A DNA stretch of 64,000 nt. Source: Chrysomallon squamiferum. Lineage: Eukaryota; Animalia; Mollusca. The position numbers and the translations under genes were made by a program. The notes beneath the pieces were generated by a model. The model did not search any database. It was not told where the DNA came from and saw only the letters and a list, made by a program, of their open reading frames with translations. How positions within the stretch are numbered: position 1 is the first letter of the stretch; the number at the start of each line of letters is the position of its first letter. The stretch is taken from positions 30,504,001 to 30,568,000 of the forward strand of contig CM022672.1 in assembly GCA_012295275.1 (NCBI GenBank), written 5' to 3'. This document shows, piece after piece, positions 9-58,355 of the stretch.

Positions 9-1046
9 CTCTACATTTGTGTGTATTGCAAGTCACAGTCCGTGTCTCGACACTGGATCCCTGACAGTCACTTCCACCATTTCGAGGTGATGGATTGTTG
101 CAGGATCTGTATCTTCTCTGATCTTTGTGTTCAGATCCACACAGGCCATAACATTCAGTGGTGTCCCTCCAATATGACCAGCTACTCCAGCCACCATTAA
201 CTAATCATAAATAAGATATTGAAGTTTATAACAAATGTAAATTACAGTTAAATGATTGGTGCAAAGGCTTTTGTCCTCATATTATGTCTTAGGAAGTAAA
301 AACTTCAATTTGCCCACTGCGCTATTTCCCATTTCTGCAAGTACCTCATGATGTACTTACCAAATACAGTTCTATGTGGTATTCTAATTCTAAATGTAAA
401 GCATTTAAAGCATTGTTCATGGTTATTCACTGAAAAGTTTTATTTTTTATTTTTTTATTCTTTTGTTGTTGTGTTTTTGGTATTTATTTATTTATTTATT
501 TATTTATTTTATTTTATTTTATTTTATTTTATTTTTTTTTATATTTTTTTTTTTATTTTATACTCAACAGGCAAAAACAAAATTGCAGACATTAAATGAA
601 AATTAAATGTCCTGAAAATCCGAACTAAATGCAACTAAGAAATAACACTAATGCTAACTGCCTTAAGTAAAAGAAGAGTGGAATAATGCTCTATTTAATA
701 TCCAAAGAAACTCGAGAAAAGACAAACCATTTACGGTTTATCAGATTTGTAAATATTTTATTAGTTTGTGAAAAACGAATGTTAATCAATTATAAAGTAA
801 CAAGATACATAAACCAATTCTTAGGAATTGTTAAGTTACAACAAAGGCTAACATTGTTGAGTTATATTTACTTTCACATGCTGCTCTACAACAGAGTTGT
901 TTTGTTGAGTTATACTTACTTGCAGGAGGTCGAGTTGTTGTAGGTGGTGCCCTAGAAGGCACACGACTGCGAGTCCACCATCCCCACAAAAATGCTTCAG
1001 TACAGACCAATAATACACATACGATTAACAGTGTAAACAATTTCAT
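9..1046 (-). CDS. Copy A (5' part only): secreted TSR/chitin-binding-domain family protein
   Basis: Signal exon 920-1046 (ag|[45 protein letters not shown]; phase-1 gtaagt donor). TSR exon 9-200 (192 nt; [64 protein letters not shown]; gtgagt donor). The remaining exons lie beyond position 1. Confidence 0.85.
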
Positions 1047-1350
1047 CTATGACAGAATACAAAAAAATATATAGATATACAGATATATATGCACACATAT
1101 GTAGTATTCTACAGATACACACATGCTCACAGCCATATATAAAGATGAAATCTGGTCAGAAAAGAAAATGTCACAGCCTTTAAAATTTCTTCCGACCTGT
1201 TTGAAAAGAGGATAAACATAGCCATCCAAAATGAGTACAAAAAAAAAAAAAAAAAAAAAAAAAAAATGAATGAAAATAAATTATCAAAAATATTAAACAA
1301 ACAGCCAAAGGAAAATAAATAATTTTAGCTAATAATAAAGTATAATTTAC

Positions 1351-1445
1351 CTTCGGATTCCAGATTGTTTAGATCTGTTCTATGAACAAATTCAAAAACT
1401 TCATATAGATAAATGGTGAGGATTGTAACACAATGACTGGGAAAA
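1351..1445 (-). promoter_or_regulatory. Putative non-coding first exon and core promoter of copy A
   Basis: Conserved block ending GGAATCCGAAG|gtaaat (donor at 1350), with a TATA-like tatatg near 1402-1407. The same block lies upstream of B, C, D and F. The coding exon begins ag|ATG, which fits an upstream exon. The TSS is inferred. Confidence 0.55.
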
Positions 1446-2220
1446 AAACACTGACACAGAGAACAGCCAAAATGAAATCAATACGCAAATTTAATTAACT
1501 CGCACTGGAGACATCTGTTGTTATATCAAATATTTCCTTCATATTAAGTTACTCCTAATGAAAAAGAGATATCGTTGGAAATATTTAAAATTTTGTTTTA
1601 ATATTCGGGTAAACGTCTCGTTGATATATAATGTTCAGCATAACAGTTCCAGGATCATTTTTTGGGTTATTTTCCCATTTCTACGAAAGCTCTGTGTCGT
1701 TTCTTTCAGATTTAAATTAAGTCTGACCTCAGTTGTGAGTAATAAATATCTTGTAATATCTTCATTCAAATGTTCATTCATTCAATTATTCATATATACA
1801 AGAACTACTGCAGTTTCTCAAAACAGTCGTTCGTTGGTTTCACTCTTAAGATTTAATTTCTATCACCACGTTATCTTGCTGTGATGAAAAACCAAATTAG
1901 AATAATTAAAACCTTTGACTCATCAATGGTAATTTCAAAAGGTTAGTTTTACAGGGTTCTTTAAATTATTTGTTATGGTATTCAGTCGTACTGAAATTTC
2001 TATGACCACATTATAACACTGTCGTGATAGGCTAAAAACCAAATCAGGATAATTAAAACCTTTGACTGTAACTCACAAATGGTAATTTCAAAATGTTACT
2101 TTTACAGGATTCTTTAAATGACTTGTTATTGTATTCAGACTTATTGAAATTACGCAGACAACAATAAGATTTTAATCAAGACTATGATGTTTTTAAGATA
2201 ACTACTTAAAAACAATAAAT

Positions 2221-55993: not shown

Positions 55994-57988
55994 TTAGCAT
56001 GTACCAAGTGAACAAGTTGAGTTTTTTGTGTCCCAGACAGATCCTGGTGGACAAACAAGGTTGTACGCCACACCATGGATACACTGGACGAAATCACGAC
56101 AAGTCTTTCCAGGTAAGATGACAACTCCTACTTTAGGACAGCCATCTGAAAAGGATGATAGTCATCAATAAATGCCTGTAATAATCATCATCATCAGACC
56201 TATGTCAATCACTGACAAACATTTTGTTAATATATATTCCAACTAAAACGTTTTCTAATATACACATAGATGTGCATATTAATAGAATATTGATATATAT
56301 ATATATATATATGTGTGCACACAAACAAGACATATGCATGTAGAGACACCTGTACTCGTTTATTTATTATGAAACAGAAAATTAAAATTTATATGAGGTT
56401 TTCGAAGAATGTGGCCCTCAAAATTAACCACTGATATAGTAATATTCTAAACTAAATAATTAATTATTAAAATGTTTTATGCTTATCAACTTCAACACTT
56501 AATTTTCTACAAAGCGCTGTCTACTGAAAATAATGGATAAGTGTATATTAAATTACTTGGACATGCTTGCTGATTACAGCTGTATGATTCGTTTTCAGTT
56601 TTGGATCCATAGCACGAATGTCCACCATAGGCAGGCACTGGATTAGTGCAATTTCTGCTCCTGCTTCCCGCACGAATTCCACCTCCACAAGTTTTGCTGC
56701 ATTCATCGTATGTCCAATCTGACCAAGATGCCCACCCACCATCCACTGTAAAATAAAGAGTATATTAGAATTTACAAGTGAAGAATCAGATGAAGCCAAG
56801 AAAAGCCTATTCTGTTGACAGCTCATTTTAGGGTCACTGATTTAATTACTTATATATATTCACTGATTCTTATGTACTAATTCATATATGAGCTTGCCTA
56901 CTTATATCTTTATTAATTCATTTATATACTTATGTACTAAATTAATCCTTAAAGACTTACATAGATATATATTTATTTGTCCACTTACATATCTATACAC
57001 TAATATATAATTTTACTAGGTATTTCCATATATTCAGAATCACAAATTTGTTTATATGCTTTTGTACATGCTTGCTTTCATATTTACATATATAGTTGCA
57101 TACGTATATGTGTATATATGTATTCCAACTAAAACGGTTATTAACGTTCACACATAGATGTGTATATTAATACAATATTTATATATATATGCACACACAC
57201 AAAACATATACATGTAGACATATCTATGCTCGTTTATTTATTATGAGACAAAAAACTTACAACTTATATGAGGTTTTCGAAGAATGTGGCCCTCAAAATG
57301 AACCAAAGACATGCCATATATAATTTTTATATTACTTACATTAATATAAGACTCACCTCCACATTTGTTTGTATTGCAAATCACTTTCCGGATCTCGAAA
57401 CTGGACCCCTTACAGTATCTTCCACAATATCGAGGTGATGGGTTGTTGCACGACCTAATCCTATTCTGAACTTTGATTCCAGATCCACATGACCTAGAAC
57501 ATTCACTGATGTCAACCCAGGAAGACCAGCTGCTCCAGCCACCATTAACTAATCATAAATAAGATATTTAAGTTTATAACAAATGTAAATTTCGCCTCAT
57601 ATTATGTTTAGGAAGTAAGAACTTCAATTTATCCACTGGGCTATTGCCCATTTCTTCAAGTACCTCATGAAGTACTTAACAAATATACTGGTATGTGTTT
57701 TTCTAACAACAAAAATGTGAAGCATTTAAAGGATTATTCATGGTGATTTTGTGAAAAGTGGTGACTGATGTATTTTCTAATCTTTCCTTTTTTCTTTCCT
57801 TTTTTCTTCAGAAATTTGAAAGTTACAACAAAAGGCTAATATTGCTGAGTTCTACTTACTTTCAGATGCTGCTCTTTAACAGGTTATGTTGTTGAGTTAT
57901 ACTTACTAGAATGAACTGTCCGAAAAAGCCACCAGGCTTCACAAGAGACGAAGAATACATATACTATTAACAGTGTAAACAGTTTCAT
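55994..57988 (-). CDS. Copy F: secreted protein with 2 TSRs and a chitin-binding domain, 204 aa
   Basis: Exons 57907-57988 ([27 protein letters not shown]), 57357-57548, 56557-56745 and 55994-56145 ([49 protein letters not shown]). 615 nt open. No subtype-3 TSR exon. Confidence 0.88.
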
Positions 57989-58260
57989 CTATGAGAAAAA
58001 CAGAAAGAAAATATAGAGATACAGATATGTATACACACATATATAATAGCTAGACACAAACAAATACTAACACACATATATAAAGATGAAATCTGGTCAC
58101 AAAAAGAAATATCTTCCAACATCATTAAAAAAAGGATAAACATAGCCACCCTAAATAAATAAAAATTAAAAATAAATTAATGAAAATAAATTATTACAAA
58201 TATTAAACAAAGAACGAAAGCAAAAGAAATAATTTTAGCTAGAAGTAAAGTATAATTTAC

Positions 58261-58355
58261 CTTCGGATTCCGGATGGTTTGGATCTGTTGTATGTACAAA
58301 TTTAAAAACTACATATAGATAAATGGTGAGGATTGTAACACAATGACTGGGAACA
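58261..58355 (-). promoter_or_regulatory. Putative first exon and core promoter of copy F
   Basis: Homologous to 9468-9560; donor at 58260. Confidence 0.55.

Follow-up and report, generated by a model that had tools for sequence, protein, structure and literature searches.

The 64,000-nt window of the Chrysomallon squamiferum genome analysed here (contig CM022672.1; all positions are those of the window) carries, between 9 and 58355, a tandem array of genes for predicted secreted rod proteins of a molluscan family in which a stalk of thrombospondin type 1 repeats (TSRs) ends in a chitin-binding-type CBM14 domain. We favour, though tentatively, the reading that these proteins are tethers for glycan recognition at the animal-microbe interface. 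Six-frame motif scans and inspection of splice sites gave six paralogues within the window, all on the minus strand and named F, E, D, C, B and A in order of falling coordinate. Three of them, F, D and B, are whole and have an uninterrupted reading frame from ATG to stop, A is cut by the window edge, and E and C are broken. Five genes share one anatomy, running from an exon for the signal and N-terminal peptides through the TSR exons to a last CBM14 exon of 49 residues. The TSR exons number 2 in F, 3 in E, 3 in D, 16 in C, 3 in B and 1 in A before the window edge, 28 in total, and all 28 lie between an AG acceptor and a GT donor in phase 1, the phase of every intron in the array; 25 have a length divisible by three. 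Motif scan, splice sites and phases bear out the original prediction, made from the sequence, of six co-oriented paralogues with these exon counts. Its account of the family anatomy was right in counts and order but silent on the stops and deletion in E and the frameshifts in C.

The last exon had been taken for a CBM14 domain, an assignment supported by Pfam and by fold. CBM_14 (PF01607) matched all five last exons at 35.9-39.4 bits against a cut-off of 22.1, and all six Cys are kept in each, with the spacing 12-5-9-12-4. The predicted model of the domain has five strands and a predicted local distance difference test score (pLDDT) of 87.7, and Foldseek ranks 1-10 against the PDB were all CBM14, the top rows being Avr4, CHIT1, Der p 23 and EHEP with probabilities of 0.99-1.00 and E values of 0.03-0.4 (none below 0.001). 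EHEP is a PDB match to the tip by sequence as well as by fold. The six-Cys spacing and fold are thus those of the CHIT1 CBM14, Avr4, tachycitin, Der p 23 and Aplysia EHEP, while the window tips differ from this set in a first spacer of 12 instead of 15, in having no Trp two residues after Cys5, and in being joined to TSRs and not to a GH18 domain or mucin spacers. In human chitotriosidase (CHIT1), Pro451, Leu454 and Trp465 matter most for chitin binding according to the available part of PMC5459812. The Pro451 equivalent is Pro in 4/5 window tips. Of 935 CBM14-like motifs in the 150 representatives listed, 592 have W, H, Y or F in the place of Trp465. Chitin binding by the window tip is plausible. 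A word-indexed homology search with a single CBM exon gave no homologue. HMMER with the CBM profile mostly returned multi-CBM14 proteins; one of the 150 matches listed (P0259) also has a TSR, and no close orthologue of the window tip was among them.

In the stalk, the three TSR exons tested against TSP_1 (PF00090) all passed the Pfam score, and each of the 21 intact TSR exons checked has the WxxWxxW ladder, the RxR motif and at least six Cys. The repeats belong to three classes, a, b and c, arranged in fixed order, and are of a long form, with 62-63 residues compared with the usual 56-58. TSRa repeats carry a net charge of +3 to +7 and no N-glycan sequons; TSRc repeats are mostly acidic and carry 1-3 sequons. 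TSR arrays form a rigid rod in properdin and thrombospondin, and the structure predicted for TSRb (pLDDT 40.7) was too low in confidence to show the elongated three-strand fold. The sequence CxxS/TCxxG is the O-fucosylation consensus, and motifs of this type were seen in 5/5 TSRb exons checked (e.g. 7447-7635), in 2/5 TSRa exons and in no TSRc exon. The TSRa of gene F (57357-57548) has a seventh, unpaired Cys, possibly a site of dimerisation or cross-linking.

At the other end, signal peptides assigned by rule are predicted to span 18 residues, with a mean core hydropathy of 2.7-3.4 and Ala at -1. They are followed by a Cys-free peptide of 9-24 residues with 2-3 Trp and a net charge of +1 to +4; that of gene A has 24 residues with Trp, Arg and Pro. 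The Trp peptide is followed by Gly and two basic residues (Gly-Arg-Lys or Gly-Arg-Arg) in D, B and C, three of the six genes and members of both subfamilies described below; such a Gly-dibasic string is an amidation signal. Gene E has a polybasic RXXR site, and F and A have no Gly-dibasic site. Exon 1 also had Pfam matches to Conotoxin (E 0.34) and Chordopox_A13L (E 0.18), which were rejected because both fall below the cut-off and lie over the signal peptide.

The same design occurs in other molluscs. A profile search with TSRb gave 249 matches, of which 120 were listed; among those listed, three Patella proteins combine TSP_1 with CBM_14, and a follow-up search adds two. The Patella proteins of this design are XP_055954275.1 ('hemicentin-1'), XP_050405072.1 ('coadhesin'), XP_055958261.1 ('SCO-spondin'), KAK6194982.1, KAK6195016-18.1 and KAK6176119-20.1. 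These proteins have a signal peptide, an aromatic N-terminal module with six Cys, between 1 and 11 parsed TSRs and either one CBM14 domain or two. Isoforms of one pair (355 vs 481 residues) and of another (681 vs 744 residues) are set apart by entire TSRs. The scallop Argopecten has one TSR with four CBM14 domains (XP_069142517.1). These proteins share with the window genes a signal peptide, a segment rich in aromatic residues at the N-terminus, TSRs of the long form (61-63 residues in Patella) and a C-terminal CBM14. The N-terminal part differs, a six-Cys module in Patella and a Cys-free Trp/Arg peptide in the window, as does the tip, with mostly two CBM14 domains in Patella and four in the scallop but one short terminal domain in the window genes. 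The six-Cys module of Patella had no Pfam match, and its ESM Atlas matches were all under 0.8; in P0121, P0065 and P0045 (residues ~20-62) it has a Trp-Gly-Trp-like turn that resembles the Trp peptide of the window. A TSR median of 62 residues or more was found in 11 of 120 listed relatives with two or more parsed TSRs, and all 11 are molluscs. In a quick tree of 63 columns, TSRa and TSRc of the window fall together with the TSR next to the CBM in the Patella P0121/P0065 family at a Shimodaira-Hasegawa-like approximate likelihood ratio (SH-aLRT) of 92, below the 95 mark, and the position of TSRb was not settled; the window CBM aligned to P0122 with an hhalign probability of 85%. These relatives point to a gastropod as the likely host. 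The names given to the Patella and Argopecten proteins appear to be best-hit labels that automatic annotation took from the TSRs alone, and the relatives were rejected as true hemicentin, SCO-spondin or coadhesin; no recorded function was found for them. Properdin, hemicentin, SCO-spondin and coadhesin resemble the window proteins in their six-Cys TSR arrays with WxxW ladders, but the window proteins have no Ig, vWF, LDLa or F5/8 domains.

Other sugar-binding modules are found on comparable stalks. In two abalone (Haliotis) proteins, P0011 and P0014, a C-type lectin ends the long-form TSR stalk, and the stalk therefore carries interchangeable sugar-binding tips. Coral proteins in the TSRb search combine PF02140 with TSRs. 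Rhamnospondin of Hydractinia, which has an N-terminal SUEL rhamnose lectin followed by TSRs, is tandem duplicated and polymorphic. The window family is likewise a tandem duplicated set of predicted secreted sugar-binding-type modules on a TSR stalk, but its module is the C-terminal CBM14, and no SUEL lectin was found in exon 1 (3/3 scanned) or in the gene models of the window. A cationic N-terminal peptide joined to a Cys-rich chitin-binding-type C-terminus is also known from penaeidins, tachycitin and mytichitin, and joint roles of chitin-binding antimicrobial peptides in defence and in the exoskeleton have been suggested (both from the accessible portion of PMC10608444); those peptides have no TSR stalk. 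No paper describing a TSR-CBM14 protein family was found in literature searches directed at this architecture or its setting, where subscription journals lay mostly outside coverage, and PMC12380485 offered nothing on the subject. The earlier suggestion of an unnamed architecture stands as to the name, as far as these searches go, but the architecture is not peculiar to C. squamiferum, as limpets and a scallop have it. A lectin on a stalk of TSRs is a known kind of design, and public annotations of molluscs already contain this one without a name. The window genes stand apart by a Cys-free head with Trp and Arg, by having one short tip only, by their two-gene cassette and by the signal of selection.

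Codon models were run on intact exons, E omitted (four CBM, five TSRa, five TSRb and thirteen TSRc). The one-ratio ratio of non-synonymous to synonymous rates (omega) was 1.71 for the CBM (p 0.16 vs 1), 2.27 for TSRb (p 0.057 vs 1), 0.99 for TSRa and 0.43 for the tip-proximal TSRc (p 0.0015), the sole class differing from 1. TSRc is under purifying selection. For pooled CBM, TSRa and TSRb exons, the site model M2a was preferred over M1a with p 0.004 (F1x4) and 0.0002 (F3x4), and for the pool including TSRc with p 0.023 (F1x4) and 0.0016 (F3x4). The residue aligned to CHIT1 Trp465 falls among the variable sites. These codon comparisons lend moderate support to diversifying ends on either side of a constrained spacer.

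As tethers, at work in the mucus, the haemolymph or on epithelia, the proteins would dock through the CBM14 tip on chitin or a related N-acetylglucosamine surface, be it that of microbes or parasites or the chitin of the animal itself. Spacing would fall to the N-glycosylated TSRc repeats, and the cationic TSRa together with the Trp/Arg peptide could contact a second partner, a microbial membrane or a host cell, with selection likely diversifying both working ends. Several observations weigh against such a role. Counted from Cys4, the CHIT1 Trp465 equivalent is Trp in 0/5 tips (Phe in 3, Leu in 1, Val in 1), and the Leu454 equivalent is Leu in 0/5 and Ser/Thr in 5/5. EHEP and Der p 23 have the CBM14 fold and do not bind chitin (PMC10619976, in the part available). 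The selection signal is that of pooled exons: by single class the M1a/M2a comparison was not significant (p 0.077, 0.22, 0.053 and 0.78 for CBM, TSRa, TSRb and TSRc), the tests used our own code with fixed trees, the three-class pool was picked after the omegas were known, and gene conversion among paralogues can inflate site tests. TSP1 and CBM14 (ChtBD2) are also enriched, as separate domains, in chitinous matrices (available portions of PMC8476170 and PMC13425148).

This last point leads to a rather unlikely but substantial alternative, in which the proteins are linkers of a chitin matrix, anchored by CBM14 on the animal's own beta-chitin (in periostracum, radula, gut lining, operculum or scales) with the TSR stalk cross-linking matrix proteins at set spacings. 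The matrices enriched in both domains are the tubeworm tube proteome (PMC8476170) and the shell matrix of the brachiopod Lingula (PMC13425148), peritrophin-A genes are highly expressed in the scale epithelium of the vent snail (PMC7142155, PMC9156901), and the TSP1 proteins of limpet pedal mucus are different molecules from its chitin-binding proteins (PMC7333891), all as far as the accessible text of these sources goes. Stalk length, moreover, differs by paralogue and by isoform in Patella. Conservation would be expected of an anchor whose host polymer does not vary, however, and the tip is among the fastest-changing parts (omega 1.7); each molecule has a single weak CBM14, and among the rows listed in supplement 3 of PMC11871041, as far as it was available (17 with PF00090, 15 with PF01607), no shell or sclerite protein of the vent snail combines the two. 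The proposal of linkers of graded length, made at the outset, is right in that stalk length varies, but the intact genes span only 2-3 TSRs and the long stalk of C needs exon skipping. Quite unlikely is a tip that has left chitin binding for a polyphenol, haem, metal or protein ligand, as EHEP has, the proteins then being secreted scavengers or adhesives. The missing Trp465 and Leu454 equivalents would fit such a tip, as would the match by sequence and fold to EHEP, which does not bind chitin (PMC10619976); against it, Phe is kept at the Trp465 place in 3/5 tips, the Pro451 equivalent is mostly retained, and binding residues are not conserved even among CBM14 chitin binders (same source, in the part available).

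Processing of the head would give the family yet another meaning, which we regard as improbable: a convertase cut at Gly-Arg-Lys or Gly-Arg-Arg would free a short, amidated peptide rich in Trp that would act on membranes or as a signal, and the TSR-CBM14 part would be its carrier. The Gly-dibasic site of D, B and C and the RXXR of E would allow this, but F and A have no such site, and the occurrences in D, B and C amount to one observation because they share one ancestral codon string. Very improbable is a decaying array under relaxed selection, where an omega near 1 would reflect lost function. Gene E is dead, gene C is frameshifted, the omega of TSRa is 0.99 and the TSRa of F has an extra Cys; nevertheless, the Cys are preserved in all CBM exons and in all intact TSR exons checked, TSRc is constrained, and an RNA contig described below fits spliced D. 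The glycan-recognition reading could be extended, doubtfully, to a mollusc-wide, still unnamed innate-immune repertoire of tethers with two heads, in which a diversifying CBM14 tip would read chitin-like glycans on microbes, symbionts or parasites, the TSRs would provide tunable reach and the Trp/Arg head (released as an amidated peptide in some paralogues) would attack or signal. Its diversity would come from duplicated cassettes, shuffled exons and positive selection acting on the two ends. If a recognition family is indeed at hand, it offers research on molluscan immunity and symbiosis a handful of natural variants that can be expressed, and their specificity is directly testable because it is precisely the predicted sugar-stacking position at which the tips differ; if the structural reading holds, the genes are a natural ruler series for chitin-protein composites. 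In both cases a molluscan TSR-stalk/CBM14 design sits under misleading automatic names. The surprise is moderate because the parts are familiar domains.

The non-coding DNA gives clues to the growth of the array. The first 200 bp past the stop codon agree by 90-97% among F, D and B, compared with 75-83% across subfamilies, and the first intron is 89-95% alike within E, C and A. The subfamilies {F,D,B} and {E,C,A} alternate along the array, so the repeated unit is probably a two-gene cassette, in agreement with self-BLAST; a plain one-gene repeat was rejected on account of these two alternating subfamilies. Unequal crossing-over between cassettes likely yields new copies, and unequal crossing-over between the symmetric phase-1 exons new stalk lengths. 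Gene C grew by exon duplication: three of its TSRc exon units form a recent internal duplication (Table 1), and exons 6 and 9, like exons 7 and 10, are identical. A birth-and-death family with variable ends and variable stalk length, as originally proposed, is thus supported by pseudogene E, by the frameshifts and internal duplication of C and by the sites with omega above 1.

Not all copies survived. Gene E has four in-frame stops, three in TSRa and one in TSRc, and a 10-nt deletion in TSRa, and it alone is missing the donor motif of the exon for the 5' untranslated region (UTR), which is present in five genes. A broken pogo/Tigger-type transposase lies upstream of E (Table 1), and its insertion may have separated the gene from its promoter. 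Read straight, gene C stops in exon 3 because TSR exons 2 and 3 (25051-24859 and 23216-23024) are frameshifted, each having 193 nt with one extra A in an A-run. Either these exons are dead but skippable in frame, leaving 14 TSRs, or the shifts are assembly errors; in DNA run X1, no one-base indel was listed at the two sites and no bridging contig was shown. The possibility that all six genes are functional was rejected, E being a pseudogene and C frameshifted.

Contigs from sequencing runs were aligned over 22600-27200, the region of gene C, so that splice joints of gene D are inferred. In RNA run X4, the alignment of a 261-letter contig (depth 2.24) begins exactly at the TSRa acceptor at 26100, with 101 letters beyond. 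It differs from TSRa exon 1 of C at 13 positions, and among eight TSRa exons only that of D differs from C at 13. By this comparison the contig is likely a spliced transcript of gene D. A second X4 contig of equal depth has a difference inside the signal exon.

Table 1 Genes of the TSR/CBM14 array and other features of the window.
Feature	Position	Strand	Details
Gene F, intact, 204 aa	55994..58261	-	5'UTR-exon donor 58261; signal+peptide exon 57988-57907; TSRa 57548-57357 (7 Cys); TSRb 56745-56557; CBM14 56145-55994
Transposase, broken, pogo/Tigger type (HTH_Tnp_Tc5 + DDE_1)	46231..47864	-	1.5-3.1 kb upstream of E
Gene E, pseudogene	42208..44715	-	signal exon 44715-44607; TSRa 43844-43663; TSRb 43449-43261; TSRc 42870-42676; CBM14 42359-42208
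Gene D, intact, 268 aa	32728..35778	-	UTR donor 35778; signal exon 35489-35408; TSRa 34775-34584; TSRb 33989-33801; TSRc 33406-33215; CBM14 32879-32728
Scaffold gap, 200 N	30824..31023	.	between D and C
Gene C	16265..27015	-	UTR donor 27015; signal exon 26786-26690; 16 TSR exons from 26100 to 16748, class order a,a,a,b,c x8,b,c x3; CBM14 16416-16265
Internal duplication in gene C, recent	19350..22514	-	three TSRc exon units; 97% over 1709 bp
Gene B, intact, 268 aa	6381..9468	-	UTR donor 9468; signal exon 9214-9133; TSRa 8488-8297; TSRb 7635-7447; TSRc 7059-6868; CBM14 6532-6381
Gene A, window-edge fragment	9..1351	-	UTR donor 1351; signal exon 1046-920; TSRa 200-9

The DNA around the genes shows further traces of duplication. 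The segment 58400-64000 is 82-93% similar to the spacer that lies upstream of D and of B, and because of this resemblance another cassette with a gene of the E/C/A type may lie beyond the window. Between D and C, 28641-29672 is an older copy of the upstream spacer in inverted orientation, matching it at 73-82%. The intron between exons 2 and 3 of gene C holds a very high-copy repeat (23900-24700), for which the summed contig depth reached up to 100,000 in DNA run X1 and which is present in RNA runs too.

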